The notes beneath the pieces were generated by a model. That model worked only from the letters and a program-made list of their open reading frames with translations, was not told where the DNA came from and ran no database searches. 43,792 nt of DNA. Source: a bacterium (GTDB lineage: Bacteria; Ratteibacteria; UBA8468). The translations under genes and the position numbers were made by a program. Each line of letters starts with the position of its first letter. The first letter of the stretch is position 1. The stretch is from positions 1 to 43,792 of the forward strand of contig DAOVNU010000001.1 in the NCBI GenBank assembly GCA_030630065.1, read 5' to 3'. Below, piece by piece: positions 7,955-30,933 of the stretch.

Positions 7955-7955
7955 T

Positions 7956-16252: not shown

Positions 16253-16281
16253 ATTATACCCCAATTTAATACGTTTGTCAA
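16253..16281 (-). promoter_or_regulatory. Sigma70-type promoter of the DeoR regulator gene
   Basis: The minus strand reads TTGACA-aacgtattaaattgggg-TATAAT: consensus -35, 17-nt spacer, consensus -10. The -10 ends 17 nt before the ATG, so the leader is very short and lacks an SD. Confidence 0.65.
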
Positions 16282-16315
16282 GTTTTGTTGCAAAAAATTG
16301 AGATGTTATGAGACA
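16277..16315 (-). promoter_or_regulatory. Conserved ~40-nt upstream motif, copy A (abuts the -35 of the deoR promoter)
   Basis: The plus strand reads GTCAAgtttTTGTTGcAAAAAAttGAGATGTTATGAGACA. It shares a 16-nt perfect core and flanking blocks with copy B. Confidence 0.5.
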
Positions 16316-16371: not shown

Positions 16372-17790
16372 TTACGTGTAACTTTTAATAATCCTTTTTA
16401 TCTCTTTCTCCTTTGCTTCCGGGAGAGGTTCAATCCTATGGGTCTTGAGAATCTCCTCTGCCTTTTCTCTTGCAGAATTTCTTATATCAGGGAACCCTCT
16501 ATCCGCTAACTTCTCCCAGGAATCCCTTGAAGATAGAGTTGGCATATAGATCTCCCCTGTTCTAAGTCTATTGATAGTATGTGGATGGGTAAGGAAGGTT
16601 TTACCTTCTGAGGCCGCCATTATAGCATCTAACCCTATCTCCCCATTTGATGTAGAGAAACCTTTCTTAAACCTCTTCATAATGCCTGCAATCTCATTAT
16701 CTATCACCAGTTGTTCAAAACTCCCCATCAAGACATCCCCAATACCTCCTGCACAGGAGATGATATCTGCTCCTGCAATAAATGGCAGAAGGAGGTTAAG
16801 CATACGCTCATATCCGCTCTGGATATCAAGGAAATTGGAGCTTGTGCAGAGACCATATACATCAGACGGCAACCCATAAAATGAGGCCATCTGGACACTG
16901 CAGGCTGAGGAAATACCAATCTCAGGATTACCCCACATCGGTCGCACAGTTCTCAAATTCATCGGGCTAATGCGAGAGCAATAGATTTTCGGAACATCCT
17001 TATCAATGAATGCAGCGTAGATGATAGTCGCCAGGTTTTCAGCGTTTGACTGGACCACTGTTCCTGTGAGGGTTATCGGTGCCGTCGCACCGCTTATTGG
17101 GCAGGGGAGCGCGCGGATAGGAAGACCTGATTCCACGCATATTCTGATTGTCTCTGTCAAATCCTCCGGGAAGAAGAGAGGGCTAATAGGAGATACAGGA
17201 AATGACGCTATCGGTTTCTCACGCAATCTCTTCCTGTTCCCCGCCAACACCAACATAATCTCTATAATACTCTTTATCTCATAGGGGTGATGGACTCCAG
17301 GGCCAAAGATAGGTTTGCGTGTGTTCTTAATAAGTGCATAAAGTGTGTACGGCCAGATAACGCGGGGAGGGATATCAAGCGGGGAAAGAAATCCACCGAC
17401 TGGGCTCAGATTCTCAAGTCCATCTATAAGCCGGATTGCATCCTCCAGGTCCCGGGATGTTGTCTTGCGCCGCGACCTCTCCTTATAATCAAAGAGCCAA
17501 GCATAATTTCCACCATTACGCACAAAGGTTTCGCCCCCACCTATCTCCAAGGTCTCCTTCAGATCTCTCGAGTGGAGTTTAAAACTCGAGGGGTTTCCTC
17601 TAAGCGCCTTCTCCACAACATCCGCAGGAAAAATTACCCGATTGCCTTTGACCTGGCAACCATTGCCCGCAAGGATCTCCTTTGCCCTTTTCCCCTCAAA
17701 CCTCACCCCATTCTCTCCCAATACCTTGAGTGTTGCGGCGTGTATATTCTCTATATCATCCTCGGTCAATATCTTGAACCTTAAAGACAT
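16372..17790 (-). CDS. MttB-superfamily methyltransferase (trimethylamine/glycine-betaine methyltransferase family), non-pyrrolysine type
   Basis: It contains MSLRFKILTEDDIENIHAATLKVLGENGVRF, and length and composition are typical of MttB/MtgB-like proteins. The frame has no in-frame TAG. I prefer the ATG at 17790, preceded by GGGAGGGTGGAGAA, over the ORF-track start at 17826. Confidence 0.75.
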   Translation of the reverse strand: MSLRFKILTEDDIENIHAATLKVLGENGVRFEGKRAKEILAGNGCQVKGNRVIFPADVVEKALRGNPSSFKLHSRDLKETLEIGGGETFVRNGGNYAWLFDYKERSRRKTTSRDLEDAIRLIDGLENLSPVGGFLSPLDIPPRVIWPYTLYALIKNTRKPIFGPGVHHPYEIKSIIEIMLVLAGNRKRLREKPIASFPVSPISPLFFPEDLTETIRICVESGLPIRALPCPISGATAPITLTGTVVQSNAENLATIIYAAFIDKDVPKIYCSRISPMNLRTVRPMWGNPEIGISSACSVQMASFYGLPSDVYGLCTSSNFLDIQSGYERMLNLLLPFIAGADIISCAGGIGDVLMGSFEQLVIDNEIAGIMKRFKKGFSTSNGEIGLDAIMAASEGKTFLTHPHTINRLRTGEIYMPTLSSRDSWEKLADRGFPDIRNSAREKAEEILKTHRIEPLPEAKEKEIKRIIKSYT

Positions 17791-17939
17791 TTCTCCACCC
17801 TCCCACTTTTTCTTTTGTTTCAACATTTTTCTTTTAAAGCAATCTCAGGATTTCTATGGAAATCTCTGCGCCGTTTGACAAGGTTAGAAGACATCCTCCT
17901 TGCATTGCAAATGGAGTATGCCAATCTATCTTCTTATCC

Positions 17940-18929
17940 TCATACATGTTCAGAACGCCACCAGTAAAGAGGTATTGGGGCAAAGACATCATCAATTTTT
18001 TCTGGACCAAAGAGAATCTTGACCGATTTTAAAGAGTCATCTATCCGATTTTTCTTTCCTATCTTTTCCTGAATCTTCTCTTTGTTAATGAGGCGAACCA
18101 TACCTAAATAACCTTTACAGTTCAGAAACCCTAATTCTAAAAGTAGTTTTGGTAATCCCTCCTGAAGGGGAGGAGTGATTACCGCAATGCTTGAGAAAAT
18201 ATTCTTTTCTATAATGGTCTTAAGAAGAAAGGCAACTATTTCTGCTTCTCCGCCATATTCCAATACTACTCCTTCTTGATTTATAAGGAGATAGGCTACA
18301 ATTCCCCTTTTCCTCCTGGCTAAAAATGCTCTGCTACCTGGAAGAGAAAAGAGAAGAGAATATTCCTTCAGTGTTCTTTCCAGTCGCAAAGGTTCTCTTT
18401 CATGAATCCTTTTAATTTCAGAAAAACAACCTATCTTCTCTGATATTTCTATTGTTTCAGAGGAAGAAGGAAGGAGAAAGAAATTACCTTTATTCAGAAA
18501 GAATGAATATTGAATACCAACCTGTTCCCAGCCAAGACATCGGTAGAAATCAGGATTACCTGTCCAGAGAATGGAGAAATCATAATCCTCTTTCTCCATT
18601 TTACGAATGCAATCTTTTAGAATTAAAGAGGCATAACCTTTTCCACGATAGTCAGGATGGGTGCAAACCCCACCAATTCCTCCCACCTTAAACCTTATTC
18701 CGTTACTGATAAGAATTCTTTCACAAATTATGGTATGAGCAACAACCTTTTTATCTACCTTCAGGACTCTCATATTTTCTAAATTTTTTTCATTGTAAAT
18801 ATAGTATTCATCCTGAAGTTTCCTATTCGGTTTGCCTCTTAAGGTGTAGAAAACTAAATTAAGTAATTCTATTGCTTCCTTAAATTCCTCTTTTTTACAT
18901 CCTCTTGGGCCTTCAATTAGATTCATCAT
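17940..18929 (-). CDS. GNAT family N-acetyltransferase (Eis-like, with C-terminal extension)
   Basis: 329 aa with the acetyl-CoA motif GGVCTHPDYRGKGYASLILKDCIRKM. Confidence 0.7.
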   Translation of the reverse strand: MMNLIEGPRGCKKEEFKEAIELLNLVFYTLRGKPNRKLQDEYYIYNEKNLENMRVLKVDKKVVAHTIICERILISNGIRFKVGGIGGVCTHPDYRGKGYASLILKDCIRKMEKEDYDFSILWTGNPDFYRCLGWEQVGIQYSFFLNKGNFFLLPSSSETIEISEKIGCFSEIKRIHEREPLRLERTLKEYSLLFSLPGSRAFLARRKRGIVAYLLINQEGVVLEYGGEAEIVAFLLKTIIEKNIFSSIAVITPPLQEGLPKLLLELGFLNCKGYLGMVRLINKEKIQEKIGKKNRIDDSLKSVKILFGPEKIDDVFAPIPLYWWRSEHV

Positions 18930-18931
18930 AA

Positions 18932-20377
18932 TTATTCTTTTAAGAAGGTGATTACTTCCGGTAAAGATGTTAAGTCATAATAACGTAACACAGTCAAACT
19001 CTCCTGATTAATTATTATCTCTTTTTTATCTTCACCTTCCAATGCTTTTACCAATAATTTTTGAGAATTTCCTAAATTGCCAATGGCAACCCAGAGAAAA
19101 TTATTAACAAAAACTGAAACTATTCTTTTGCCTTCGGTTAAAGGAAATCTTTTTTTCTTTGTTTCTTTTACCTCTAGATAAGCAACTGTATTCTCTTTGA
19201 CCATCTGTTTATAAACATCCAAATATCTGAAATATCTCTCTCTGCCAGCGATAAAACTCGCGCCCATAAGAGGAGGAAATCCTGCCTTCTTTTGTGCTTT
19301 TATCCACTCTGTCCAGTTATCATATCCCTTTTTCCAAGAAACACCCGGGATATTAAAAAGATTTTCTTCTTCTCCATAACAGCCATCTTCCAGCCAGGGG
19401 AATTGCAAATAGGGAATAGTGGCTGCAAAAGAGAGGTTTTCTGTTTTAGGCAGTAATTCTAAACGAGGAGTAAAATCTCTATCCTTCCAATTGGTAATTA
19501 AATGGCTCCAATCATTGAATCGGAGGACATAAGGTTCATACATTTTTGTCTTTTCTATTGAGGTTAAAATATCGGGCACACCTTCTCCCAGTAATTGGTA
19601 ATCCCAACATTTATCCTCAAAAGGTGATTCTACATCTGAACCGATATGGGCAACAATTAATCCATTTCTTTTTTTAACTCTAACATATATTTCACAAATG
19701 AAATCATTCCAGAGGGCAGCAAAGCTCTTATTTGTTCTACCTTTTACCGCATCAGCTAAATGGTTCACATTTCCTTTTTCTTCAGGAGAGATTTCTATAA
19801 AATGGATATGGTTATCGGAATTTGGATTAGAACAACCCGGTCTTTTTAATCCCAAACCACCATCCCAATATAAGCCATCAAATCCATAGTCATCCATTAA
19901 TCTATCTATGGTGTTAAAAAAATACATTCTCCAACCGGGACTTCCTGGACAAAGCATATCTAAATCGTAGTAGACCTCAACAAGATGGCCTACTCCGCGG
20001 CTCCATTCTTCTTGATAAACAGGATTTCTAACATCTAAATATCCTGGTGAGACATAAGGAATAACCTTTAAACTTCTTCTATGACATTCATCAATAAACT
20101 TTCTTAATCCCTTTTCATTTAGAGATTCATAGACACCTTTCCCAAAAAAACCGCATATATCATTCCACCACCATACATGGACAACCCCAAGCCCTTTTTC
20201 AGCATAGAGGTCAAGAAGTTTCCAGTCTTTCTCCGTTGGATAGTAAGGTCTTCTTGTAGGATAATGACCAAATTGGTAGCGGGTGTGTCCCGGCGCATAA
20301 TTATAAATACGGTTTTTCTTTAAACATCTCAGATTATTATCCCTTGCCCATTTCAAAAATATTAATCTATCTGCCAT
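18932..20377 (-). CDS. Hypothetical TIM-barrel glycoside-hydrolase-like protein
   Basis: 481 aa with ...FIDECHRRSLKVIPYVSPGYLD ... DDYGFDGLYWDGG.... This resembles GH-like (GHL) barrels. No family could be assigned by eye. Confidence 0.4.
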   Translation of the reverse strand: MADRLIFLKWARDNNLRCLKKNRIYNYAPGHTRYQFGHYPTRRPYYPTEKDWKLLDLYAEKGLGVVHVWWWNDICGFFGKGVYESLNEKGLRKFIDECHRRSLKVIPYVSPGYLDVRNPVYQEEWSRGVGHLVEVYYDLDMLCPGSPGWRMYFFNTIDRLMDDYGFDGLYWDGGLGLKRPGCSNPNSDNHIHFIEISPEEKGNVNHLADAVKGRTNKSFAALWNDFICEIYVRVKKRNGLIVAHIGSDVESPFEDKCWDYQLLGEGVPDILTSIEKTKMYEPYVLRFNDWSHLITNWKDRDFTPRLELLPKTENLSFAATIPYLQFPWLEDGCYGEEENLFNIPGVSWKKGYDNWTEWIKAQKKAGFPPLMGASFIAGRERYFRYLDVYKQMVKENTVAYLEVKETKKKRFPLTEGKRIVSVFVNNFLWVAIGNLGNSQKLLVKALEGEDKKEIIINQESLTVLRYYDLTSLPEVITFLKE

Positions 20378-20378
20378 T

Positions 20379-21182
20379 TTATCTGAGAATAAAAGCGTTG
20401 ATTAAAGTTCTGAAAGCCTCAGCGTATTTTATCTTATTGTCCAGAGTCACATCCATTTCCTCTGCCCTGAATCTTGCTTTTGCTTCTGCGTATTCCCATC
20501 TCCACTTACATCTATTCATCTGACTTTCTTGTTTGTATAAGGCCTCTTTCTTTTTAGCAAAGAACCTGCTCACATCAATATAGGTATCAGGAGCCATTCC
20601 CATAACTCTGGCAGCTGTTCCTGGTTCCCAGGAAAGCAATACGCCTAATTCTACTTTTTCCATTGCCCTCCTATATGCTTTATAGACCAAACTACAGCTA
20701 GCAGAATGCTCTGGGTTTTCATCATCCATACTATGGGTAAGAACAATCTTGGGCTCAAATTGAATGATTAAATCAGATACTTCATCAACGCATTTTCCTA
20801 TACCTGGAGCCACTACGATAGGTTCCTTGCCAGGAGGATATTCTTTAACATTGTAATCGGTAAAGTCAAGATACATATGTTTTTTCTCTTTCTTATCCCA
20901 CATTCCACATTCTTTAAAATCAAGAAAAATTATCTCTTCTGCTCCTAAAACCTTTGCTGCTTCTGTAGTTTCTCGTTTCCTGATAGAGGTTGTTTTATCA
21001 GGGGAGTAATATTTTGACGGTATCTCTTCTCCTTCTTTTGTCCGCATACATCCAGAAGCGTTGTTGCCTACCATCACATAAATTACTTTGTATCCCAGAT
21101 GACCATACTTTGCTAAAGTTCCTCCTGCCTGAAGTTCTATATCGTCAGCATGTGCTCCAAAAGCCATAATACACTTTTTCAT
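20379..21182 (-). CDS. PIG-L/LmbE family N-acetylglucosaminyl deacetylase
   Basis: 267 aa with AFGAHADDIELQAGGTLAKY at the N-terminus and HSMDDENPEH later. Confidence 0.8.
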   Translation of the reverse strand: MKKCIMAFGAHADDIELQAGGTLAKYGHLGYKVIYVMVGNNASGCMRTKEGEEIPSKYYSPDKTTSIRKRETTEAAKVLGAEEIIFLDFKECGMWDKKEKKHMYLDFTDYNVKEYPPGKEPIVVAPGIGKCVDEVSDLIIQFEPKIVLTHSMDDENPEHSASCSLVYKAYRRAMEKVELGVLLSWEPGTAARVMGMAPDTYIDVSRFFAKKKEALYKQESQMNRCKWRWEYAEAKARFRAEEMDVTLDNKIKYAEAFRTLINAFILR

Positions 21183-21319: not shown

Positions 21320-21412
21320 TTATAATATGTGAAAGATTTTGTTTTCCTTATAAGCTTCTATATGAATTTTGCTTATCATCCCTGTGCCGATTATCCCTAT
21401 ATTTAAACCCAT
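21320..21412 (-). pseudogene. 30-codon stub of a Gfo/Idh/MocA-family (IolG-like) NAD(P) oxidoreductase
   Basis: My own translation is MGLNIGIIGTGMISKIHIEAYKENKIFHIL*, which is the Rossmann N-terminus of Gfo/Idh/MocA enzymes. The ATG overlaps the upstream stop (TAATG), as in a translationally coupled gene. Only about 230 nt remain before the next gene. Confidence 0.5.
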
Positions 21413-22272
21413 TATTTTAACCCCATTAATTTCCTTACCTGTTGGAGGGATATTTTGGCTGCCTCTTTTACATCTCCCCCAAGTACATTTTTATAATAGT
21501 TGAAAGACTCAAATTCTACTGACACAAAACCCTGGTAGTTAATTTTATCCAAGGCTTTAAAAAAAGATTTCCAATCTACATTACCTTCTCCCAATAAAGG
21601 AAAGATAAATTTCCCTTCTTCAGGAATTCCTACTGCATCCTTTAAGTGAATATGCTTTATTTTTTTGTCCCATTGTTTGATAATCCATTCTACATCAAGA
21701 TTCCCATATAAAACATCATGCGATGGATCAAAGTTGACTCCTAAGTAGGGAGAATCAAAGTTGTCTATCAGTAGTCTGGTAGTATAATAATCATGGCAGA
21801 GCATACCCCAAACACCTTCTACTGCGAGATTCATCTTGAATTTTTCTGCCACAGAGACAAATTTATCATAGGCCTCAAAGACCATATTCCAAGCTTTCTT
21901 CTCTGATATATCTTTATGAAGTTTAGGTGCTTTTGAATCCCAGGGCGCTGGACCAGTAAAAAGATTAATCGTGTTTATGCTTGCCTCTGAGAAAACCTCT
22001 ATACATTGAAGAACAAGTTCTATTCTGCTTTTTCTTAATCCTTTATTCAAAGTTACTAAATCTTGCTGAACTACTACCTCACTTACCTCCATATTATATC
22101 GATGGGTTAAATTAACTATTCTCTCTATTTCCTTCAGGGATTTCTTTCTTGGGTCAAGATGGGAAAGGGTCCACTCTACCCCGTTATATCCTATTTGAGA
22201 CAATACTCTTAATACCTCTTCTGGCTGCATCTGGCTAAATCCTAAAGAAGCCATAAAACCTATATTTCGCAT
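21412..22272 (-). CDS. Sugar phosphate isomerase/epimerase, xylose-isomerase-like TIM barrel (IolE/IolI-like family)
   Basis: 286 aa with GYNGVEW ... NLAVEGVWG ... GVNFDPSHD ... HIHLKDA ... VSVEFE, the metal-ligand pattern of the AP_endonuc_2 fold. Confidence 0.75.
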   Translation of the reverse strand: MRNIGFMASLGFSQMQPEEVLRVLSQIGYNGVEWTLSHLDPRKKSLKEIERIVNLTHRYNMEVSEVVVQQDLVTLNKGLRKSRIELVLQCIEVFSEASINTINLFTGPAPWDSKAPKLHKDISEKKAWNMVFEAYDKFVSVAEKFKMNLAVEGVWGMLCHDYYTTRLLIDNFDSPYLGVNFDPSHDVLYGNLDVEWIIKQWDKKIKHIHLKDAVGIPEEGKFIFPLLGEGNVDWKSFFKALDKINYQGFVSVEFESFNYYKNVLGGDVKEAAKISLQQVRKLMGLK

Positions 22273-22273
22273 T

Positions 22274-23371
22274 TTATCTTGTCTCTTTTACTGTTTGAAC
22301 TAAAAGAGAGAACTTTTCAAAAGAAACTTCAGGAGGAATACTATGATCTGAATGGTATATATATCCCCCCTGTAGTCCAAGCGGTAATTTACTATTAAGT
22401 TCTAACAACATTTTCTTATTGTCTCCAAGAATAGCTCTGATGTCAATATTGCCCATAAAGGATAGTGAATTACCCCATCTCTCCTTTAATTCTTTAAGGT
22501 CCATACCTGCTTTAACTTCAAGTGGTTGGAGCACATCTATTCCTGCACCGATTAAGTCGTCTATTGCTTCATTGCAATTGCCATCTGTATGGTAAAAGAC
22601 AGGTATTCCTTTACTTTTAAAGAAGGAGAACACTTGTTTATGGAAAGGCATTAGAAGCTCACGATACATTACCGGGGAGAATAAAAGACCATTTTTATAT
22701 GCAATATCTCCGGCAAAGAATGCTCCGTCAAACTTCATACCCGATGTGAACATCTTTTCTGCTGTTTCAATAATCGTTTTGGCTATTGTGGAAAAGATAT
22801 CTTTAACAAGGTCAAATTCCGTAGCCATCATCAGAAGAAGTTTTTCGTCACCTACCAATCGCATTGCTGTCTCATAACATTCAAGAGTATTAAGAAGAAC
22901 AAAGGTGTCTTCTGGATTTTCAAGCTCGTTATACGTGTTAATTACATTTTTTTCTCCAGATGGACGTAAATCTTCATAATAATCACCCCAATACCCCAAA
23001 CTTACTCGATTAAGAGAAGGAGTAAATCGAGCTTTAATTTTTCTCCAATCTTCTTGACTATTAACTGCCCAACTTAATACTTGGGGAGGAGCAGAGATAT
23101 TGTTAAGCTCCTTTATTTTTCGTCCATATTGGTCTATCCGAATAGTATATCTTTCTGTGTACTCGAGTTCCTGAGGAACTATCATAGGGGAAGTATCAAG
23201 AAAATAAGAATACCTTATGTCAAATTCGAAGTAATCATTCGGATGTTTCTCTTCAGGCAACCCCTCTTTTCTCCATCGAGTTATAGTTTCCTTCCATGGT
23301 GCATCGGTGAAGGGAATTCTATCAACTGGTTGTCTTCTTATTGCTTTTATAACCCTTTCTTTTGACGTCAT
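22274..23371 (-). CDS. Uroporphyrinogen-decarboxylase (URO-D/MtaA-like) fold protein
   Basis: It starts MTSKERVIKAIRRQPVDRIPF at the internal ATG 23371, with GGGAGGGAGG 9 nt upstream and 1 nt after the upstream stop. It also contains ...VFYHTDGNCNEAIDDLIGAGIDVLQPLE.... The ORF-track start at 23452 would overlap the upstream gene by 80 nt. Confidence 0.7.
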   Translation of the reverse strand: MTSKERVIKAIRRQPVDRIPFTDAPWKETITRWRKEGLPEEKHPNDYFEFDIRYSYFLDTSPMIVPQELEYTERYTIRIDQYGRKIKELNNISAPPQVLSWAVNSQEDWRKIKARFTPSLNRVSLGYWGDYYEDLRPSGEKNVINTYNELENPEDTFVLLNTLECYETAMRLVGDEKLLLMMATEFDLVKDIFSTIAKTIIETAEKMFTSGMKFDGAFFAGDIAYKNGLLFSPVMYRELLMPFHKQVFSFFKSKGIPVFYHTDGNCNEAIDDLIGAGIDVLQPLEVKAGMDLKELKERWGNSLSFMGNIDIRAILGDNKKMLLELNSKLPLGLQGGYIYHSDHSIPPEVSFEKFSLLVQTVKETR

Positions 23372-23372
23372 T

Positions 23373-24239
23373 TTAAAATCCTCCCTCCCAATTCCTTTTT
23401 GGCTCAAAACCCAATTTCTCTCTTGCTTTGGTGATATCAAACAAAGAAGCATAAGGATTCTTTTGAAAATACTCTTTATTCTTTATCGGTGGAGGACTCT
23501 CCGGATAAAGATGCCGAATAAGTTCTAATGAATCTATTTTCTGGAAAGTATCGGCAGCGGTGATACAAAAAGATTCAAAAGGAGGAGAAACATCAAGGGA
23601 ATAGTTCAGTGCCAAGCGATAGGCCTGAGCGACATCTTCGGGAAAGATATAAGAACTGAACCAGTTTTTGGCATCCACATTTTTGTTCTTCAAGATATTT
23701 TCTATTGCTTTCTTATCTCGCTTTAGCCAGACCCAACAGAACCTTAAGGAGATTGCTTCAATTCCATAAGCCCGGCTATATTCCTGGCACATGACCTCTC
23801 CAAAATATTTGCTCAGGCTATAACTTTCATGAGGATAAGATGGATGTTCTTCATCAATAGGGAGATATTTTGGCTTGTAAGAGACATTATGGATTCCAAA
23901 ACCAGAGGCAGATTCACTACAGCCAAAGACAACACGAGGAATTTTATTCCGTCTGATTGCCTCCAGAAGATTATAGGTACCGATAACATTTACCTGCATT
24001 ACCTTATCTCCTGGGTCATCAAAGGGGTGAGGAATTGCGGCAAGATGAATGACCGTATCAAAACCCTTTACTTTACTTAAAACTTCTTCTGCATCCAAAA
24101 GATTCAGTTTAAGAAAAGGAATCTCAGGGTATTTAGATGGGGGCTTAAGGTCAAGAATAGTTACCTGATGTTTATCCTTTAGTTCCTTAACCACATATTC
24201 CCCAATATCTCCCGAACCTCCAGTAATTAGTACTTTCAT
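23373..24239 (-). CDS. NAD-dependent epimerase/dehydratase (extended SDR)
   Basis: 288 aa with MKVLITGGSGDIGEYV and the YSLSK catalytic motif. Confidence 0.8.
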   Translation of the reverse strand: MKVLITGGSGDIGEYVVKELKDKHQVTILDLKPPSKYPEIPFLKLNLLDAEEVLSKVKGFDTVIHLAAIPHPFDDPGDKVMQVNVIGTYNLLEAIRRNKIPRVVFGCSESASGFGIHNVSYKPKYLPIDEEHPSYPHESYSLSKYFGEVMCQEYSRAYGIEAISLRFCWVWLKRDKKAIENILKNKNVDAKNWFSSYIFPEDVAQAYRLALNYSLDVSPPFESFCITAADTFQKIDSLELIRHLYPESPPPIKNKEYFQKNPYASLFDITKAREKLGFEPKRNWEGGF

Positions 24240-24251
24240 TAAAATACTTTT

Positions 24252-24884
24252 CTAAATTATTCTTTTTCTGAATGCTTCTTTTAATTCACTATCCTGAATA
24301 GAGTCTATATCAATTATCTCAAGCACGCCGGGATAGTTTAATACAGGTTTAAGCACTTTCTCATTTATTAAAGAGATGGTTTCAGCAAACGAACAGTGAA
24401 CCGTTGCAGAAATTTTCATGAGAGTTTCAATACTTTGTTTTTGAGATTCTTTGCGATAAGATGGATATCCCTGACCAAACTCTTTTAAGGAAAAAAGCCG
24501 GTCAAAGATAAACTTTAAATTAATATCTCCAGCCCAGCCATAGCCAAAATTCAGAGCAAGGGAAATGCAATTTCCTCCATTGATCTGCCCAAATAGCCAG
24601 GCATCAAGCGGAGTTTGAATTAATCCGCAGGATACATTGGGATACTGCATCACAGAGTTCAAAAAACCCTGGCCTGTGCCACATCCACCAACAACTAAAT
24701 CCACTTTTTTAAGGTTAAGTAAAATTGCTGATAAAAGCCCGGTATGGATATAGGTTAATTCCGGTTTAGCCCCAGTTCGTCTCATACCAACATTGATAAT
24801 GGTATGCCCCCTATTCTCAAGGGCGGTAATAATGTTCTTGTTCTTATCCGCAGAACTGGTCTCGTTAATAACCGCTATTTTCAT
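24252..24884 (-). CDS. RpiB/LacA/LacB-family sugar(-phosphate) isomerase, divergent long form
   Basis: 210 aa with MKIAVINETS... and VVGGCGTGQGFLNSVMQYPNVSCGLI. Confidence 0.6.
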   Translation of the reverse strand: MKIAVINETSSADKNKNIITALENRGHTIINVGMRRTGAKPELTYIHTGLLSAILLNLKKVDLVVGGCGTGQGFLNSVMQYPNVSCGLIQTPLDAWLFGQINGGNCISLALNFGYGWAGDINLKFIFDRLFSLKEFGQGYPSYRKESQKQSIETLMKISATVHCSFAETISLINEKVLKPVLNYPGVLEIIDIDSIQDSELKEAFRKRII

Positions 24885-26689
24885 TTTTCTTCTTTTTTCG
24901 CCTTCTCATATTTTTCTCTTCTTTTTTTGAGGTAGGTGGGTATTGGCACATCCCACCAACCGGCTACTTTACCACCAGAGTAAGGAAATTCTCTATTTAC
25001 AATCACCTCAATGACCGCTGGTCTTTTAGAACCAAAAGCTCTTTTTAATGCCGGCTTCACCTCTATTGGTTTCTCAATTCTTTCTGCATAGCAGCCGAAT
25101 CCTCGAGCAATAGAGGTAAAATCCGGGGAATAAAGTTTGTCCTTGTTGTTTCTAAATTCTGTTCCTACAATCCTTTCCTTACCAAAGGCGGCAATCTGCA
25201 GGTCGGTAATTGCCTGCCAGGCAAAGTTATTCAGGATAGCAATTACTATTGGAATATTATATTGAACCGCAGTAGAAAGTTCCTGCATGGTCATCATAAA
25301 GTCCCCGTCACCCAGCACACCAATAACCTCTTTTTCCGGTTCTGCTAACTTAACTCCGATGGCTGCGGGAAGGGTAAATCCCATCGTGGAAAAACCGCCA
25401 GAAGTAATAAGTGTTTTTGGCTCATAGAAAGGAAATTCCTGAAGAATCTGGGCCTGGGCATTACCGGAAGAGGTGACTACAATACCATCCTTAGGTAAGA
25501 ATTCTCGTAATTCCTTTAAGAAACGGGAGATGGTCACTGGAATCTTTTCCGATTCCCGGAAATCACGAATACTCTTAAACCATTCTTTCTTTAATCTTTG
25601 AATTTCTTGGTAATATTTTTCTTTGGCCGCAGAGCGAGTTCTGCCACTACAATTTTTAATTTTTAATTTTTCTATTATCTGCTTTAATATCTCTTTTGCA
25701 TCACCGAGAATTCCGAGCTCCACGGGATAGTTCTTGCCAATCTCGGTAGGGTCTAAATCAATTTGAATCAATTTAGTTGGGGGGATGGAGAAACTAACCC
25801 CTTTTTTGTAAGAAGAACAGGTTTCATCAGCAAATCTACAACCCACTGCTAAGAGGACATCGGCAGAAGAAGTAAGTTTATTCCCACAGCTTGTTCCTTT
25901 GGAACCGGCATGCCAGCCATAAAGAGGATGGTCTTCGGGAAAAGATGACTTACCCATCATTGTGGTAATAACCGCAGCAGTTAAACTTTCTGCTAACTTT
26001 TTTAACTCTGCTTCCGCATTAGCGGCAATTACACCCCCGCCGGCTAAAATAACCGGTCTCTTTGCTCTGACTAATAAATCTACTGCTTTTTTAATGAGTT
26101 CTGGGTCTCCAAACATTCTTGTTTGTGATTGATGTTTAACTGGCTCAGGAATCTTCACCTCAGCAGAATCTGCCTGGACATCCATCGGCAAATCAATGAG
26201 AACTGGACCACGTCTTCCGGCCAACATCTGATTAAAGGCTCTTTGTAAGATAGAAGGCAGTTGCCCTACATTAGTTACCTGCCACCAGCGTTTGACAATT
26301 GGTTCCAAAATTCTGGGGAAATTAGCGTCATGAGTTCTTTCAATCTCCTGGAGAACCCCTCTTCCAAACATATGGGTGTGAGTATCTCCAGTGATTACTA
26401 AAACCGGGGTAGAGTCAACAAAGCAGGTAGCAACCCCAACAGCGGTATTAATCGCCCCCGGACCAATGGAGGTAAAAACAGCCAAAGGTTTACCCGATAC
26501 CCGATAATATCCATCAGCTAAATGAACCGCAGACTGCTCATGCTTTACCTGAAGAATCTTAATTTTCTTCTCTCTTCCTTTAAAGGCATCAACAAGACCC
26601 AAGCAGCCATGGCCGGGAATCCCAACAAAGTAAGGGATTCCTTCCTTAATTAAGTACTTAGCAATAATTTCTCCACCGGTCAATTTCAT
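24881..26689 (-). CDS. Thiamine-diphosphate-dependent enzyme of the acetolactate-synthase superfamily, IolD-like
   Basis: 602 aa with FTSIGPGAINTAVGVATCFVDSTPVLVITGD and the ThDP motif GDGDFMMTMQELSTAVQYNIPIVIAILNN. An N-terminal GIPGHGCLGL and a C-terminal tail WWDVPIPTYLKKRREKYEKAKK recall B. subtilis IolD (GHGNVLGIG; WWHVGVAEVS...AYEAKEKK). That comparison is from memory and was not searched. Confidence 0.75.
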   Translation of the reverse strand: MKLTGGEIIAKYLIKEGIPYFVGIPGHGCLGLVDAFKGREKKIKILQVKHEQSAVHLADGYYRVSGKPLAVFTSIGPGAINTAVGVATCFVDSTPVLVITGDTHTHMFGRGVLQEIERTHDANFPRILEPIVKRWWQVTNVGQLPSILQRAFNQMLAGRRGPVLIDLPMDVQADSAEVKIPEPVKHQSQTRMFGDPELIKKAVDLLVRAKRPVILAGGGVIAANAEAELKKLAESLTAAVITTMMGKSSFPEDHPLYGWHAGSKGTSCGNKLTSSADVLLAVGCRFADETCSSYKKGVSFSIPPTKLIQIDLDPTEIGKNYPVELGILGDAKEILKQIIEKLKIKNCSGRTRSAAKEKYYQEIQRLKKEWFKSIRDFRESEKIPVTISRFLKELREFLPKDGIVVTSSGNAQAQILQEFPFYEPKTLITSGGFSTMGFTLPAAIGVKLAEPEKEVIGVLGDGDFMMTMQELSTAVQYNIPIVIAILNNFAWQAITDLQIAAFGKERIVGTEFRNNKDKLYSPDFTSIARGFGCYAERIEKPIEVKPALKRAFGSKRPAVIEVIVNREFPYSGGKVAGWWDVPIPTYLKKRREKYEKAKKEEK

Positions 26690-27657
26690 TTTTTGAGATT
26701 CTCAGAATGACTGAGAGCGTTCTTCCGTCTTAAAACTCGCTGGACTGCCTTGACAATATCATTTATTCCCATTCCATAATGGTCAAGGAGCAAATCGTAA
26801 TCTAATGCTGTTTCGGCAAAGGTATCGGCGATACCTACCTGCTCTAAAGGTACGGGATAGTTCTTCCCCAATGCTTCCGCCACTGCACTACCCAATCCAC
26901 CAATAACAGAATGTTCTTCCGCTGTGACAATTGCGCCTGTCTTTTCTGCAGATTCCTTTATTAAGGAAATATCCAATGGTTTAACTGTGTGCATATTTAT
27001 TACTCGTACATCTGTCCCTTCATTAGATAAAACTTTTGCTGCCTCAAGACAGCGAGCCAGCATTGAGCCATTAGCAATTATAGTTACCTCTTCTCCTTCT
27101 CGCACAATTACCCCTTTTCCAATTTTAATCTGATGGTTGTCATCAAAGATTACCGGCATATCAGCCCGACCAATCTGAAGATAAACCGGTCCTGGATATT
27201 CAGCTACCGCCTTCACCATTTTTTTCACCTCGATGGGGTCTCCTGGTACCACCACTGCCATATTAGGCATTGCTCGCATTACCGCAACATCTGTAATAGA
27301 GTGATGGGTGGGTCCATCCTTAAAGTCAGAGAGTCCGGCATATCCTCCGACAAGTTTTACATTGGTTTTCGCATAAGCGACACAGGTTCTGATTTGCTCA
27401 GTTGCTCGAAGAAAGAGACCTGCAAATGTATTTACAAAGGGGATCATCCCCCCTAATGCCAAACCAACTGCAGTATCAACCATCCCTGCTTCTGCAATGC
27501 CAACGTTAAAGAATCGCTCCGGGAACTCTTTGGCAAAATAACCGGTCTGTACTGAAGAGGAAACATCAGCCACTAAAACCACTACATCAGGATTAACTTT
27601 CCCATATTCAGCCAATGTTTCTCCGTAAGTTTTACGAACCGAGACCTTTTTATTCAT
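26686..27657 (-). CDS. Transketolase, C-terminal (pyrimidine-binding) subunit of a split transketolase
   Basis: 323 aa with RKTYGETLAEYGKVNPDVVVLVADVSSS ... FFNVGIAEAGMV ... GPTHHSITDVAVMRAMPNM. Confidence 0.9.
   Translation of the reverse strand: MNKKVSVRKTYGETLAEYGKVNPDVVVLVADVSSSVQTGYFAKEFPERFFNVGIAEAGMVDTAVGLALGGMIPFVNTFAGLFLRATEQIRTCVAYAKTNVKLVGGYAGLSDFKDGPTHHSITDVAVMRAMPNMAVVVPGDPIEVKKMVKAVAEYPGPVYLQIGRADMPVIFDDNHQIKIGKGVIVREGEEVTIIANGSMLARCLEAAKVLSNEGTDVRVINMHTVKPLDISLIKESAEKTGAIVTAEEHSVIGGLGSAVAEALGKNYPVPLEQVGIADTFAETALDYDLLLDHYGMGINDIVKAVQRVLRRKNALSHSENLKK
26695..26711 (-). repeat. GTCATT...AATCTC palindromic repeat, copy 4 (minimal form)
   Basis: The minus strand reads GTCATTCTGAGAATCTC. 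It encodes the residues SHSENL at the C-terminus of the transketolase C-subunit. Confidence 0.6.
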
Positions 27658-27662
27658 ATCTT

Positions 27663-27693
27663 GAGATTCTTCAGGCTTTGCCTTCAGAATGAC
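27663..27693 (-). repeat. GTCATT...AATCTC palindromic repeat, copy 5
   Basis: The minus strand reads GTCATTCTGAAGGCaaaGCCTGAAGAATCTC. It supplies the last codons and the TGA stop of the transketolase N-subunit and fills the 26-nt spacer before the C-subunit gene. Confidence 0.65.
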
Positions 27694-28520
27694 CTTGCGG
27701 TCAGTTCCTTCACTGCCTGGGCATACTCATTATCATCGGGTGCTTTACCATGCCATTCCGCTTTGTTCTCCATAAATGAGACGCCTTTACCCTTTATGGT
27801 GTGAGCGATAATGACAGTGGGTTTATTTTTATTTTCTTTCGCTTTATCCAATGCTTCTAATACCTCCTTTATATTGTGACCATCAATCTCTATAGTTTTC
27901 CAGTTAAAGGATTCCCATTTCTCCTTTATTGGTTCTAAAGGCATAATCTTATTTAGCGGCCCATCCAATTGCACTTTATTGTAATCCAAAATTGCAGTTA
28001 AGTTTGATAATTTATACTTGGCCGCGGTCATTACTCCCTCCCAGAGCACACCGGATTGACACTCTCCATCACCTACTAAAACATAAACATGATAATCAAG
28101 TCCCTTGAGACGAGCGGACAAGCAGAGTCCGGCTCCAATAGAGATTCCATGACCTAAAAAACCGGTAGTCATTTCTATTCCCGGGGTCTTTAATCGATCA
28201 GGATGTGCCTGTAAATGAGCGCCAATATGGCCCCAATTTTTAAGGTCTTCCATCGGGAAATAGCCTAAACCAGCAAGAGCCGGATAGAGAATAGCGCAGG
28301 CATGACCTTTGCTGAGGATAAAACGGTCACGATTTTCCCAATTGGGTCTATCGGGATCGATCCTTAGATGATGAAAGAAGAGAGCAGCAATAATCTCGGC
28401 GGCAGAGAGAGCACCTCCGGGATGCCCCTGTCCTCTGTGGTGAATCATCTCTAAGGCATCCAGGCGAAGCTGTTGTGCTTTCTCTTCTAATTCCTTGATT
28501 AATTCCTTCGAATATGCCAT
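27684..28520 (-). CDS. Transketolase, N-terminal (ThDP-binding) subunit of a split transketolase
   Basis: 278 aa with GHPGGALSAAEIIAALFFHHL ... ILSKGHA ... VLVGDGECQSGVLWEG. Confidence 0.9.
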   Translation of the reverse strand: MAYSKELIKELEEKAQQLRLDALEMIHHRGQGHPGGALSAAEIIAALFFHHLRIDPDRPNWENRDRFILSKGHACAILYPALAGLGYFPMEDLKNWGHIGAHLQAHPDRLKTPGIEMTTGFLGHGISIGAGLCLSARLKGLDYHVYVLVGDGECQSGVLWEGVMTAAKYKLSNLTAILDYNKVQLDGPLNKIMPLEPIKEKWESFNWKTIEIDGHNIKEVLEALDKAKENKNKPTVIIAHTIKGKGVSFMENKAEWHGKAPDDNEYAQAVKELTARSF

Positions 28521-28521
28521 T

Positions 28522-29970
28522 TTACCACCATCTTGCGATTACCACCTTTTTATGAGTAAAAAAATCAATAGCATCCTGGCCTTGTCCGTGAAGATCTCCG
28601 AAAAATGAATCCTTCATTCCCGCAAAAGAATAGAAGGACATTGGAGCAACTACCCCCACATTGATGCCTACATTTCCTGCCTCAATTTGATATTGAAACT
28701 GACGTGCCAATTTACCGTTTTGAGTATATATAGTTGCCGCATTGCCAAATCTGCTGGAGTTGGCAACACTGATAGCCTCATCAATGTCCTTTGCCTTCTT
28801 TAGACAAACGATAGGTCCAAAAAGCTCTTCATCAAAAATATGGGTTCCTGGTTTTGCATCCTCAAAAATTGTTGGACCAAGGAAATAGCCATTAGGATAT
28901 TCTTCAACCTTTACACCTCTTCCATCCAGAATGAGTTTTGCCCCTTCCTTAATACCGGTTTCAATATCCTGATGAAATTTCCTTAAGGCCTCCTTTGAAA
29001 TCACAGGTCCCATATCAACACCTTTTTCCAGACCGTTTCCTACTTTAAGGTTTGAGGCGGATTTAACAAAATTTTCCCTAAGTTCTTCATAGATGTTACC
29101 AACACCTAAAATGATGGAAGCGGCTAAACATCTCTGTCCCGCATTTCCAAAGCAGGAATTAATCATATTAGGGATTATCTTATCTAAATTGGCATCTGGC
29201 ATAACAATCAAGAAGTTGTTCGCTCCGCCATGACATTGAACTCTTTTACCATTTTCGGATGCCCTTTTATAAATTTGCTTAGCCGTTGGAGTGGAAGTAA
29301 CAGAGGAAATGCCGGCAATATCCTTATTTTCTAAAAGTTCATCGGTAACACCCTCGCCATTACCTATCAAATTAATTACACCTTTTGGAAAGCCACATTT
29401 TTCTATTAACTCAAAGATTTTAGTTTGAGTAAGGGGAGTCAAAGGAGAAGGTTTGGCAATGTAGGTATTCCCGCAGGCAACGGCCCAGGGCATAAACCAG
29501 AGGGGAACCATTGCCGGAAAGTTAAAAGGGAAAATACCGGCAAATACTCCGACGGGAATGCGAATTTCATATTCATCGATATCTTCTGCAACATCCTCAG
29601 AAAATCCTCCCTTCATTAGTGAAGGAATTCCACAGGCAGTCTCCACCATCTCGATAGAACGTCTCATCTCCCCATAGGCAGCAGGATATTCCTTTCCATG
29701 TTCCTGGGTAATGGTTTTGGCTAACTCTTCCCAATTCTCCTTTAAAAGATTATAAAGTTTAAATAAAAATCTACATCTTTCCACCGCGGGAACCTTTCTC
29801 CATTGCAAAAAGGCATTTTTAGCAGCCTTGACAGCATTTTTTACATCCTGGAGCGTGGAGGTATTGAATTGAGCTAAAACTTCACCTGTAGCCGGATTTT
29901 CTACATCAATGATTTTATTTCCGCCTGGCTCAATCCATTCTCCATTAACATAATTAAAAACTTTTTTCAT
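28522..29970 (-). CDS. mmsA: CoA-acylating methylmalonate/malonate-semialdehyde dehydrogenase (MmsA/IolA family)
   Basis: 482 aa with NYVNGEWIE...VENPATGEVLAQ, the catalytic Cys context NAGQRCLAAS, and the family-typical C-terminus FAGMKDSFFGDLHGQGQDAIDFFTHKKVVIARWW. Confidence 0.8.
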   Translation of the reverse strand: MKKVFNYVNGEWIEPGGNKIIDVENPATGEVLAQFNTSTLQDVKNAVKAAKNAFLQWRKVPAVERCRFLFKLYNLLKENWEELAKTITQEHGKEYPAAYGEMRRSIEMVETACGIPSLMKGGFSEDVAEDIDEYEIRIPVGVFAGIFPFNFPAMVPLWFMPWAVACGNTYIAKPSPLTPLTQTKIFELIEKCGFPKGVINLIGNGEGVTDELLENKDIAGISSVTSTPTAKQIYKRASENGKRVQCHGGANNFLIVMPDANLDKIIPNMINSCFGNAGQRCLAASIILGVGNIYEELRENFVKSASNLKVGNGLEKGVDMGPVISKEALRKFHQDIETGIKEGAKLILDGRGVKVEEYPNGYFLGPTIFEDAKPGTHIFDEELFGPIVCLKKAKDIDEAISVANSSRFGNAATIYTQNGKLARQFQYQIEAGNVGINVGVVAPMSFYSFAGMKDSFFGDLHGQGQDAIDFFTHKKVVIARWW

Positions 29971-29973
29971 AAG

Positions 29974-30720
29974 TTATCCTCCCTGATATTCTTGAGAAAT
30001 TTTGGAAGCAATATTTCTAATTAATAAACTTATTTTTTCTATTTTATTCTTGGTCAGCCTGAAGGAAGGTCCAGATACACCGATAGAGCCAGCTACTTTT
30101 CCTTCTGAATTTATAATTGGGGCGGCAACACATTTCACTCCTTTTACGTATTCTCCATTATCAAAAGCGTATCCCTGTCTTTTAATCTCTTTCAGGTGTG
30201 TGTGCAACTCTTTTAAATTAGTGATAGTGTGAGAGGTATAACGTTTCAAGGGTTTTCGAATAATTTTTTTTATTGTCTCTTTAGGTAAACAAGCAAGAAT
30301 GCTCTTGCCCACTGCTGTGCAATGAAGAGGTTCTCTGTCTCCTACTTCAGAACACATTCTTATATTATGTGAGCTTTCTATGCTTTCAATACAGATAGCC
30401 TCTTCTCCCTCAAGGATAACTAAATGAGCTGTCTCCCCTGTTTTTTCCTTGAGTTCCTTTAAATAAGGAAGGGCAAAATTCTTGAGGCTCTGGTTTCCTA
30501 ACACTCTCCTTGCTAAACTTAGAATTTTATATCCAAGTTTATACTTTTCGGTAGAAGAGTCCTGAATAACATAACCCTGGCTCTTTAAGGTAGCGAGGAT
30601 TCTATGGATGGTACTGGGAGGAAGGTTAAGTTTCTCTGCCAATTTCAGAATCCCGAAGCCCTCTTCCTTTTCAGGTAGAATCTCTAATAGCTTTAGGGTG
30701 CGATTAATTACTTGGACCAT
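29974..30720 (-). CDS. IclR family transcriptional regulator
   Basis: 248 aa with an N-terminal wHTH (LAEKLNLPPSTIHRILATLKSQGYV) and a C-terminal IclR effector domain (...GVKCVAAPIINSEGKVAGSIGVSGP). Confidence 0.85.
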   Translation of the reverse strand: MVQVINRTLKLLEILPEKEEGFGILKLAEKLNLPPSTIHRILATLKSQGYVIQDSSTEKYKLGYKILSLARRVLGNQSLKNFALPYLKELKEKTGETAHLVILEGEEAICIESIESSHNIRMCSEVGDREPLHCTAVGKSILACLPKETIKKIIRKPLKRYTSHTITNLKELHTHLKEIKRQGYAFDNGEYVKGVKCVAAPIINSEGKVAGSIGVSGPSFRLTKNKIEKISLLIRNIASKISQEYQGG

Positions 30721-30736: not shown

Positions 30737-30759
30737 CCATATTATGGAATTTCATTCCA
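30737..30759. promoter_or_regulatory. Two overlapping palindromes between the -10 and the start codon of iclR (candidate operator)
   Basis: CCATATTATGG (30737..30747) and TGGAATTTCATTCCA (30745..30759) were both read directly from the sequence. Confidence 0.4.
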
Positions 30760-30764
30760 CCAAT

Positions 30765-30793
30765 ATTTTAACAAAAAAATTTTTGCAAGTCAA
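30765..30793 (-). promoter_or_regulatory. Proximal sigma70-type promoter of the IclR regulator gene
   Basis: The minus strand reads TTGACT-tgcaaaaatttttttgt-TAAAAT with a 17-nt spacer, about 45 nt upstream of the ATG at 30720. Confidence 0.55.
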
Positions 30794-30869
30794 ATTCTCC
30801 ATTTCCTTAAAACCTATTATATTTACCCAATTTTATACTTTTGCAATTACTGTTTGAAATTCTTACGCA

Positions 30870-30898
30870 AGAGTAACACAAAAAAATTTGGCTGTCAA
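30870..30898 (-). promoter_or_regulatory. Distal promoter-like element upstream of iclR
   Basis: The minus strand reads TTGACA-gccaaatttttttgtgt-TACTCT with a 17-nt spacer. The -35 is the downstream end of the conserved 40-nt motif at 30894..30933. Confidence 0.35.
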
Positions 30899-30933
30899 AT
30901 CATTGTTGTAAAAAAGCGAGATGTTATGAGACA
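30894..30933 (-). promoter_or_regulatory. Conserved ~40-nt upstream motif, copy B (abuts the -35 of the distal iclR promoter-like element)
   Basis: The plus strand reads GTCAAatcaTTGTTGtAAAAAAgcGAGATGTTATGAGACA. Confidence 0.5.

Follow-up and report, generated by a model that had tools for sequence, protein, structure and literature searches.

Contig DAOVNU010000001.1 of GenBank assembly GCA_030630065.1, from a bacterium of the Ratteibacteria lineage UBA8468, carries a nine-gene operon at positions 21412-30720 on the minus strand. The stretch we analyzed, hereafter the window, comprises positions 1 to 43,792 of this contig. The operon encodes an IclR-type regulator, a (methyl)malonate-semialdehyde dehydrogenase (MSDH)-type protein, a split transketolase (TK), a thiamine diphosphate (ThDP) enzyme that groups with IolD, and an isomerase of the DhuI family, and the same core recurs in distant bacteria and archaea. 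From these genes we infer the substrate and every chemical step of a non-phosphorylative, kinase-free "carboxy-TK" route. In this route, 4-deoxy-hexosulose-uronate (DHU) would be isomerized to DKII, decarboxylated and oxidized to a C5 ketoacid, and cleaved by TK to malonate semialdehyde, which would then yield acetyl-CoA. We propose this assignment tentatively, as one that may well not hold.

A nine-gene operon with an IolD-related enzyme

ORF calls combined with Pfam and NCBIfam scans delineated nine co-directional, almost abutting genes, whose junctions are 4-nt overlaps or spacers of at most 26 nt. An initial annotation of this DNA, made from the sequence alone, had listed the same nine ORFs in the same order, and the scans upheld its coordinates and family assignments. 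The features, in transcription order, are as follows:

30745-30933, minus strand: upstream region of iclR (consensus matches only)
29974-30720, minus strand: IclR regulator, operon gene 1 (IclR_C 180 bits, HTH_IclR 45 bits)
28522-29970, minus strand: predicted CoA-acylating MSDH of the IolA/MmsA family (TIGR01722 534 bits, cut-off 448.5)
27684-28520, minus strand: Transketolase_N, PP-domain subunit (Pfam/NCBIfam)
26686-27657, minus strand: Transket_pyr and Transketolase_C subunit (Pfam/NCBIfam)
24881-26689, minus strand: three-domain ThDP enzyme (no equivalog model passed; alignment and tree)
24252-24884, minus strand: LacAB_rpiB protein of 210 aa, DhuI family (PRK09273 194 bits, cut-off 137)
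23373-24239, minus strand: small extended short-chain dehydrogenase/reductase (SDR) (Pfam/NCBIfam; structure matches)
22274-23452 as the longest ORF, probably 22274-23371, minus strand: URO-D-fold protein (URO-D 78 bits)
21412-22272, minus strand: AP_endonuc_2 TIM barrel, xylose-isomerase-like (AP_endonuc_2 116 bits)
21320-21412, minus strand: Gfo/Idh/MocA remnant of 30 codons (alignment to a related cluster's gene)

The scans of ORFs within 21412-30720 identified no kinase, aldolase or transporter, as the initial annotation had stated, and no iolB, iolC, iolJ or iolG was found among the other ORFs of the window. The description of the operon as iol-like holds for the dehydrogenase, which passes the IolA model, but every other iol equivalog model stays below its cut-off.

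The ThDP enzyme matches several curated models without reaching the cut-off of any: acetolactate synthase (ALS; TIGR00118, 454 bits, cut-off 538), Xsc (TIGR03457, 330 bits, cut-off 676; NF005713, 350 bits, cut-off 620), Gcl (NF008431, 333 bits, cut-off 791) and IolD (TIGR04377, 319-320 bits, cut-off 715). Among annotated plasmid genes, it is 45-50% identical to members of its own family in rhizobia, haloarchaea, Priestia and Arthrobacter. Outside that family identity falls to 37%, with 30-33% to IlvI/IlvB, 25-30% to IolD, 29% to Gcl and 27% to Xsc. Public sources name members of the family "thiamine pyrophosphate-binding protein" or "acetolactate synthase".

Aligned with two annotated IolD proteins, IlvI, Gcl and Xsc, the enzyme keeps the catalytic Glu (VKHEQ) and carries three features that only its family and IolD have in common: a G-x-x-G-H-G motif near the N-terminus (here GIPGHG), LQ(E/Q)xE(R/H) followed by an insert (here LQEIER), and a C-terminal (G/S)(W/F)W(D/N)VP tail (here GWWDVPIP). 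The tree likewise sets the ThDP family plus IolD apart from IlvI, Gcl and Xsc (support 100/98). We therefore place the enzyme provisionally in an unnamed family sister to IolD, the outgroup sampling of the tree being thin. The label "IolD-like" given initially is thus right as to grouping and motifs but not as to the IolD model, and the comparison with the IolD, Xsc and IlvB clades that it called for put the enzyme in no clade of known function. Curated cut-offs, motifs and tree together rule out ALS, Gcl, Xsc and IolD as identities. No ilvN lies near the gene, and a separate 561-aa ALS-like gene is present on contig C199.

The dehydrogenase scores 456 bits against the Bacillus subtilis IolA structure 1T90 and at most 246 bits against other aldehyde dehydrogenases (ALDHs), and in its motif GQRCLA an Arg precedes the catalytic Cys. 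These matches mark it as a bona fide MSDH, expected to act on malonate or methylmalonate semialdehyde, and malonate semialdehyde is accordingly the expected end point of the pathway. Contig C204 carries a second split TK, a housekeeping enzyme 54% and 45% identical to the operon subunits; the operon TK is thus a dedicated paralogue.

The isomerase has the RpiB fold, as initially annotated, but its PRK09273 match identifies it as a DhuI homologue and not a generic RpiB. Its best structure matches are 2ppw, 3ono and 4u8e (gbs1892), at E values of 1e-37 to 1e-42 and about 45% identity by eye. Against 4u8e, which we take to be the Streptococcus agalactiae DHU ketol-isomerase DhuI, the E value is 3.7e-37, and the GCGTGxG and QINGGN motifs are kept. 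DhuI belongs to the RpiB/LacA/LacB family and is a non-homologous analogue of KduI, whose family includes IolB; its known substrate is DHU (PMC12838403).

The remaining proteins are assigned more loosely. For the SDR, the closest structures are the uronate dehydrogenases 3ay3, 6mfh and 3rft, matched weakly (63-70 bits) and over the N-terminal 166 residues only, making it a candidate sugar or lactol dehydrogenase. The URO-D-fold protein has an HTDG motif in place of the H-x-C zinc motif, and its true start is probably M28 (23371), because the MTSKER start of a paralogue aligns there. Divergent URO-D-like genes occur in four related clusters (L001, L081, L092 and L077); a common role for them was considered and dropped, given identities of 16-29% and differing metal motifs.

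The TIM barrel is 52-56% identical to the TIM barrels of clusters L001 and L037. Beyond AP_endonuc_2, it matches the models for IolE (TIGR04379, 52 bits, cut-off 290), IolO (47 bits) and UxuA (23 bits), so that its earlier description as IolE/IolI-like does not extend to its being IolE; it may be either a dehydratase or an epimerase. For this protein, and for the Gfo and zinc-dependent alcohol dehydrogenase (Zn-ADH) proteins of related clusters, the best models are IolE, IolO, IolG or IolM, all scoring far under cut-off.

At a TAATG junction after the TIM-barrel gene begins a 30-codon stub, MGLNIGIIGTGMISKIHIEAYKENKIFHIL followed by a stop, which corresponds to a Gfo/Idh/MocA Rossmann N-terminus and shows 54% identity to the same region of the Gfo/Idh/MocA protein from a related Bathyarchaeia cluster. 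Nothing of the gene is left after these codons, which bears out the earlier description of an IolG-like gene reduced to a stub. Beyond the dead gene and a 230-nt gap, positions 17940-21182 encode a PIG-L family de-N-acetylase, a DUF6259 protein and a GNAT protein.

The regulator's top models are BhcR (212 bits) and, second, KdgR (174 bits), both under cut-off, and an IclR gene stands beside the cluster in 11-14 related loci. The operon is probably IclR-repressed. A perfect palindrome, TGGAATGAAATTCCA (30759-30745), sits between the -10 element and the iclR start codon and is, judged by consensus matches, a candidate IclR operator. A second promoter-like site, TTGACT-17-TAAAAT, matches the consensus at 30793-30765. 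Farther upstream, a 40-nt motif ending in TTGACA (30933-30894) is common to the deoR promoter. In full, this minus-strand motif of about 40 nt, TGTCTCATAACATCTC..TTTTTT.CAACAA...TTGACA, occurs at 16277-16315 and 30894-30933; it includes the -35 box of the deoR and iclR promoters, the rest lying directly upstream, and may represent either an upstream element common to both promoters or a promoter cassette that was duplicated.

Recurrence of the cluster and contexts of the ThDP family

Searching species genomes with the ThDP protein yielded 80 loci, whose proteins are 53-73% identical to it. They belong to Desantisbacteria, Dehalococcoidia, Poribacteria, Latescibacterota, Clostridia and Bathyarchaeia and to many Asgard archaea, Promethearchaeum syntrophicum MK-D1 among them. 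On the contigs with the closest ThDP proteins (86%, 73% and 70% identity), the block of ALDH, both TK subunits, ThDP enzyme and RpiB-like isomerase is kept, and this core appears again in Clostridia, Bathyarchaeia and Desantisbacteria and on many metagenome contigs. Around it, one or two TIM barrels, an extended SDR, Gfo/Idh/MocA, IclR, URO-D and a transporter come and go. When the isomerase was instead used to search metagenomes, 41 loci 6 kb or longer came up, in which we counted TK in 23, ThDP in 22, Gfo in 19, MSDH in 15 and IclR in 14. As the same gene set was found in independent loci from both the ThDP side and the isomerase side, the arrangement is not due to chance.

The related clusters that we inspected held no kinase or aldolase, and their transporters are of the glycoside-pentoside-hexuronide (GPH) type. 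Minimal clusters in Clostridia consist of GPH transporter, Gfo, ThDP enzyme, isomerase, TK, MSDH and IclR, with no dehydratase. None of the 60 genomes nearest to ours carries the ThDP gene, and those genomes hold only a regular ALS-like gene of about 560 aa; the operon is thus a horizontally acquired accessory.

The ThDP family occurs in more than one setting. The isomerase, TK and MSDH type accounts for at least 15 loci, and 8 of 15 isomerase-positive clusters have no TIM barrel within 8 kb. Among 89 loci, 24 have an IlvD-type dehydratase gene at most 8 kb from the ThDP gene, in many cases adjoining or overlapping it and frequently with Gfo and a GPH transporter beside it; in none of the 89 is IlvD found together with the isomerase, TK, TIM barrel or IclR. 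In the ThDP tree, sequences from both kinds of context are intermingled: a Bathyarchaeia TK-type sequence, for example, is sister to Jordarchaeia IlvD-type sequences. This suggests one reaction type served by alternative modules. In haloarchaea the ThDP gene accompanies IclR, MSDH, an MR/MLE enolase-type dehydratase, Zn-ADHs, Gfo genes and a TIM barrel, and in rhizobia and Arthrobacter it adjoins a hisD-like dehydrogenase and sugar ABC transporters. We rejected branched-chain amino acid biosynthesis as the meaning of the ThDP-IlvD link on the grounds that no ilvN, ilvC or leu genes lie alongside, that Gfo and GPH genes do, and that the tree interleaves the contexts.

Several further arrangements were noted during these scans. 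The compact GPH/Gfo/IlvD/ThDP module, whose genes often overlap, is found widely among Asgard archaea, Dehalococcoidia and Poribacteria (L044 from P. syntrophicum MK-D1, L086, L018, L041, L015, L024 and others), and aldehyde:ferredoxin oxidoreductase genes lie near L086 and L088. A third cluster type, lacking the ThDP gene (L165, L202, L154, L195, L201 and L187), combines a sugar ABC transporter, an MBL-fold lactonase-like hydrolase, a classical SDR and a TK, split or full-length, with the same DhuI-like isomerase (60-65% identity); L165 and L202 add an ALDH of about 460 aa that we read as acylating (EutE-like). In Rhizobium sp. WYJ-E13 (L093), the ThDP homologue has genes for a PIG-L deacetylase and an aminotransferase about 7 kb away. 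On plasmid pAZKH of Azoarcus sp. KH32C (L115), IclR and a TIM barrel lie near a 37%-identical ThDP homologue, which is flanked on one side by a CoA-transferase and citryl-CoA-lyase pair and on the other by shikimate dehydrogenase and type I dehydroquinate dehydratase genes; anaerobic quinate/shikimate ring cleavage is a possible function of this cluster.

A predicted transketolase route and its alternatives

In the carboxy-TK route, the isomerase would first convert DHU to DKII, the reaction known for DhuI. The IolD-related ThDP enzyme would then cleave the alpha-dicarbonyl (alpha-keto-acid) end with loss of CO2; the alpha-dicarbonyl cleavage carried out by IolD and cyclohexane-1,2-dione hydrolase (CDH) has the same mechanism as decarboxylation of a 2-keto acid. 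A Gfo/Idh/MocA enzyme would next oxidize the aldehyde or lactol so formed, yielding 3,5-dihydroxy-4-oxopentanoate; with the Gfo gene deleted here, the Udh-like SDR or one of about nine full-length Gfo paralogues in the genome would have to take its place. The split TK would hand the two-carbon ketol unit to an acceptor, for instance glyceraldehyde-3-phosphate, giving xylulose-5-phosphate and malonate semialdehyde, and MSDH would convert the latter to acetyl-CoA and CO2. The TIM barrel and URO-D-fold protein may be accessory, serving dehydration or epimerization of precursor uronates, or demethylation.

We favor this substrate by analogy with the sulfo-TK pathway, whose lower part relies on the same trio of split TK, PF02502 isomerase and aldehyde dehydrogenase (PMC9594981), and by carbon counting. 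By our own derivation from TK chemistry, TK yields malonate semialdehyde (OHC-CH2-COO-) only from the C5 donor HOCH2-CO-CHOH-CH2-COO-, and this donor would equal DKII minus its C1 carboxyl, with the 3S configuration that TK donors need. As DKII is the DhuI product, the DHU/DKII route is favored. The same reasoning argues against a C6 cyclitol, since TK acting on the inositol intermediate 2-deoxy-5-keto-gluconate would leave a C4 aldehyde and not malonate semialdehyde. The scheme also uses every enzyme of the minimal Clostridia clusters, which explains why no dehydratase is needed there, and the dehydratase partners seen elsewhere are explained if IlvD and MR/MLE enzymes make 2-keto-3-deoxy acids. 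The contexts of the ThDP family thus fit one reaction on 2-keto-3-deoxy acids, whether dehydratase-made or ready-made like DHU. We also count as support that KdgR is the second-best regulator model.

The initial annotation had proposed that TK-based C-C cleavage replaces the kinase and aldolase, in a non-canonical cyclitol or deoxy-keto-acid pathway. The first suggestion is plausible, given the conserved ALDH-TK-ThDP-isomerase core, the lack of any kinase or aldolase in the clusters inspected, and the separate housekeeping split TK of the genome. As to the second, carbon counting disfavors a C6 cyclitol, and the IlvD and enolase links favor 2-keto-3-deoxy sugar acids. A cyclitol is probably not what the operon breaks down.

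A number of observations weigh against the DHU route. The IolD-sister position of the ThDP family and its IolD-only motifs could indicate a carbocyclic dione substrate instead; one haloarchaeal Zn-ADH neighbor is named iolM by PGAP, and the ThDP homologues at 37% identity lie in the Azoarcus quinate/shikimate-type cluster and in an Aminobacter cluster of Gfo, TIM-barrel and ALDH genes. A GH88/GH105 unsaturated-uronyl hydrolase is present in only three of eight cluster-bearing genomes and in none of them near the cluster. The aldehyde oxidation step needs a Gfo enzyme, the gene for which is deleted here and absent from the short contig of the closest relative (L081). The genome already has an IolB/KduI-family isomerase and SDR pair on contig C29. 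The TIM barrel, SDR and URO-D protein are candidates without a firm place in the scheme. Finally, the ThDP family has no characterized member, and the literature searched contained no description of the cluster.

A broader claim, which is possible but which we consider rather doubtful, is that the IolD-sister ThDP family constitutes a new class of sugar-acid alpha-decarboxylases or alpha-dicarbonyl-cleaving enzymes. Together with the DhuI-type isomerase, dedicated TK and MSDH, it would form an undescribed ATP-independent carboxy-TK pathway from uronate-derived 2-keto-3-deoxy acids to xylulose-5-phosphate and acetyl-CoA; with IlvD, Gfo and GPH, it would form a second undescribed route in Asgard archaea (including P. 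syntrophicum MK-D1), Dehalococcoidia and Poribacteria.

The main rival is a cyclitol route, which we regard as unlikely. Here a dehydrogenase and the TIM barrel would make a cyclohexane-1,2-dione, the ThDP enzyme would open the ring to a 5-deoxy-uronate, the DhuI-like isomerase would replace IolB, TK would replace IolC and IolJ, and the MSDH-type enzyme would take the aldehyde. Gfo, TIM barrel, ThDP enzyme and MSDH would then mirror IolG, IolE, IolD and IolA. Consistent with this are the sister relationship to IolD with its common GHG, LQxxE(R/H) and WWDVP motifs, the distant ThDP homologues in carbocycle-type clusters, and a Haloterrigena cluster in which MSDH, IclR, a TIM barrel and two Gfo genes accompany the gene that PGAP names iolM. 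DhuI is moreover a non-homologous analogue of KduI, IolB's own family. The best NCBIfam models of the accessory proteins are always IolG, IolE, IolO or IolM, but all iol models except IolA stay under cut-off.

A true IolE lies elsewhere in four of the eight cluster-bearing genomes, a result that does not discriminate, and genome G062, despite its complete minimal cluster, lacks IolE altogether. The lack of a TIM barrel within 8 kb in 8 of 15 isomerase-positive clusters, the GPH-type transporters, and the IlvD and MR/MLE partners, which act on acids and not on cyclitols, also argue against the rival. So does the chemistry: by our derivation, 5-deoxy-glucuronate has three CHOH groups, so that after isomerization TK would leave the C4 compound 3-hydroxy-4-oxobutanoate, on which a second TK round is impossible; the even-numbered series of the sulfo-TK pathway (PMC9594981) offers a comparison.

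A longer 2-keto-3-deoxy acid of the KDO, KDN or sialic-acid type, which we think improbable, would undergo ThDP decarboxylation and oxidation, oxidation at the penultimate carbon, and two TK rounds with the DhuI-like isomerase acting between them, as in the sulfo-TK pathway, again ending in malonate semialdehyde. Two-round TK and isomerase logic is established for the sulfo-TK pathway, and extended clusters offer the extra dehydrogenases (SDR, Zn-ADH and Gfo), but minimal clusters have only one dehydrogenase. The PIG-L de-N-acetylase, DUF6259 and GNAT genes directly after the operon, like the PIG-L and aminotransferase genes near the Rhizobium homologue, would suit such a substrate; the PIG-L block is nevertheless set apart from the operon by the 230-nt gap with the dead Gfo gene, no sialidase genes were seen, nor any KDO-specific or nonulosonate ones, and the known DhuI-family substrate is a C6 uronate.

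We give very little credence to a glyoxylate or "all-to-pentose" route for uronates, in which isomerase and TK rounds would lead to glyoxylate, a Gcl-like ThDP enzyme would form tartronate semialdehyde, isomerization of the latter would give hydroxypyruvate, a classic TK donor, and the MSDH-like enzyme would act on tartronate semialdehyde. Glyoxylate carboligases are the top solved-structure matches of the ThDP enzyme (256 bits), but acetohydroxyacid synthase structures score equally, and the Gcl model reaches 333 bits against a cut-off of 791. The best regulator models include the glyoxylate-responsive BhcR, IclR and AllR, and the TIM barrel weakly matches hydroxypyruvate isomerase. Against this, the ThDP enzyme has the catalytic Glu where Gcl has Val, the tree puts it with IolD and not Gcl, and the IlvD, Gfo and GPH contexts are left unexplained.

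A sulfosugar variant of the sulfo-TK pathway, with the ThDP enzyme desulfonating sulfoacetaldehyde as Xsc does and the ALDH oxidizing it, would fit the split TK, PF02502 isomerase and aldehyde dehydrogenase that are sulfo-TK hallmarks, the Xsc scores of 330-350 bits and the AraA/FucI-like genes near two related clusters, but is highly unlikely given the missed Xsc cut-offs (620-676), the 27% identity, the tree position away from Xsc, the clear MSDH character of the ALDH, and the lack of YihQ, SqvB, SqvD and a sulfite exporter among the Pfam annotations of the scanned ORFs of the window, with no dedicated models run.

Genome surroundings and comparison with known systems

The assembly totals 990 kb in 210 contigs and is about 78% complete, a level at which absences from the genome are unprovable. 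The lack of IolB, IolC and IolJ described initially applies to the window, but contig C29 carries an IolB equivalog (TIGR04378, 238.7 bits, cut-off 205). At C29:1721-3309, it stands with a mannonate-oxidoreductase-like SDR and a 6-phosphogluconate dehydrogenase, a set that may be a reductive KduI/KduD-type alternative to the operon studied here. In this incomplete genome, the best PfkB match to IolC (TIGR04382, cut-off 300) scores 148 bits, the best Gfo paralogue against IolG (TIGR04380, cut-off 355) scores 133 bits, and no protein exceeds the IolD cut-off. The single class II aldolase, on contig C27, is probably glycolytic. Complete iolBCJG genes outside the window, which the initial annotation had named as a possible objection, were thus not found.

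The full-length Gfo/Idh/MocA paralogues lie on contigs C210, C12, C91, C88, C132, C134, C142, C18 and C110; those on C210, C12 and C91 adjoin xylose-isomerase-like TIM-barrel genes, which is striking for a small genome. URO-D-fold genes occur in about eight further places on seven contigs (C160, C141, C121, C24, C57, C4 and C93), and the two in the window, at 6104-7189 and 22274-23371, both start with MTSKER. The first of these belongs to a tight operon at 4424-9890 with a DUF6785/DUF6784 membrane protein, a CehA/McbA-type metallohydrolase, a PHP/HisJ-like phosphatase and a Kelch-repeat protein, downstream of secreted lectin/CBM-module proteins. A non-Pyl MttB-family gene is located at 16372-17826; the genome has only one corrinoid-protein candidate, on contig C202.

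If the carboxy-TK reading is true, it would give a function to a large ThDP family, spread over Asgard archaea, Bathyarchaeia, Chloroflexota, Clostridia, haloarchaea and rhizobia, that is now named only "thiamine pyrophosphate-binding protein". It would also provide anaerobes with a kinase-free TK alternative to the 2-keto-3-deoxygluconate (KDG)/Entner-Doudoroff and iol routes for acidic sugars, and show that the isomerase, TK and acylating-ALDH combination of sulfoquinovose breakdown is a module of general use, applied also to sugars ending in a carboxylate. Predictions of carbon flow in uncultured sediment and gut lineages would improve accordingly.

The initial interpretation of the operon as a non-canonical, TK-based relative of the iol logic with an IolD-related enzyme is right in spirit. 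The operon and canonical myo-inositol catabolism (IolG, IolE, IolD, IolB, IolC, IolJ and IolA) both order their chemistry as dehydrogenase, TIM barrel, ThDP C-C cleavage, ketol isomerase, C-C cleavage and MSDH; the operon ThDP enzyme is sister to IolD, and its ALDH is of the IolA family. They differ in that the operon has no kinase or aldolase, its isomerase has the RpiB/DhuI fold and not the cupin fold of IolB, its regulator is IclR and not IolR, and the IolD, IolE and IolG cut-offs are missed; in addition, TK cannot give malonate semialdehyde from the iol C6 intermediate. With CDH and IolD, the ThDP enzyme shares the fold and a predicted cleavage next to a carbonyl, and with IolD the GxxGH His, but it scores only 191 bits to CDH, is 25-30% identical to IolD, and belongs to a family tied to sugar-acid dehydratases.

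In the DhuI-DhuD and KduI-KduD route for unsaturated uronates, DHU is converted to DKII and then to KDG (PMC12838403). The operon would share with it a DhuI-homologous isomerase and the first intermediate, DKII, but it has no DhuD/KduD reductase, KDG kinase or 2-keto-3-deoxy-6-phosphogluconate aldolase, and DKII is proposed here to be decarboxylated and TK-cleaved instead of reduced.

The sulfo-TK pathway employs the split TK SqwGH, the PF02502 isomerase SqwI, and a sulfoacetaldehyde dehydrogenase or reductase; SqwI converts 4-deoxy-4-sulfoerythrose to sulfoerythrulose, and sulfoacetaldehyde follows in the lower part of the pathway (PMC9594981). At the family level only, the operon has the same combination of a dedicated split TK, an RpiB-family isomerase for a short acid-terminated sugar and an aldehyde dehydrogenase, and both schemes are kinase-free, with a ketol unit handed to glyceraldehyde-3-phosphate. 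The terminal group differs, being a carboxylate here, as the MSDH suggests, and a sulfonate there; sulfoquinovosidase, SqvB and SqvD are missing from the Pfam annotations here, and an additional IolD-related ThDP enzyme would act upstream. In our best current model, the proposed intermediates would be carboxylate analogues of those of the sulfo-TK pathway, and the operon would encode its carboxylate counterpart, fed by 2-keto-3-deoxy uronates.

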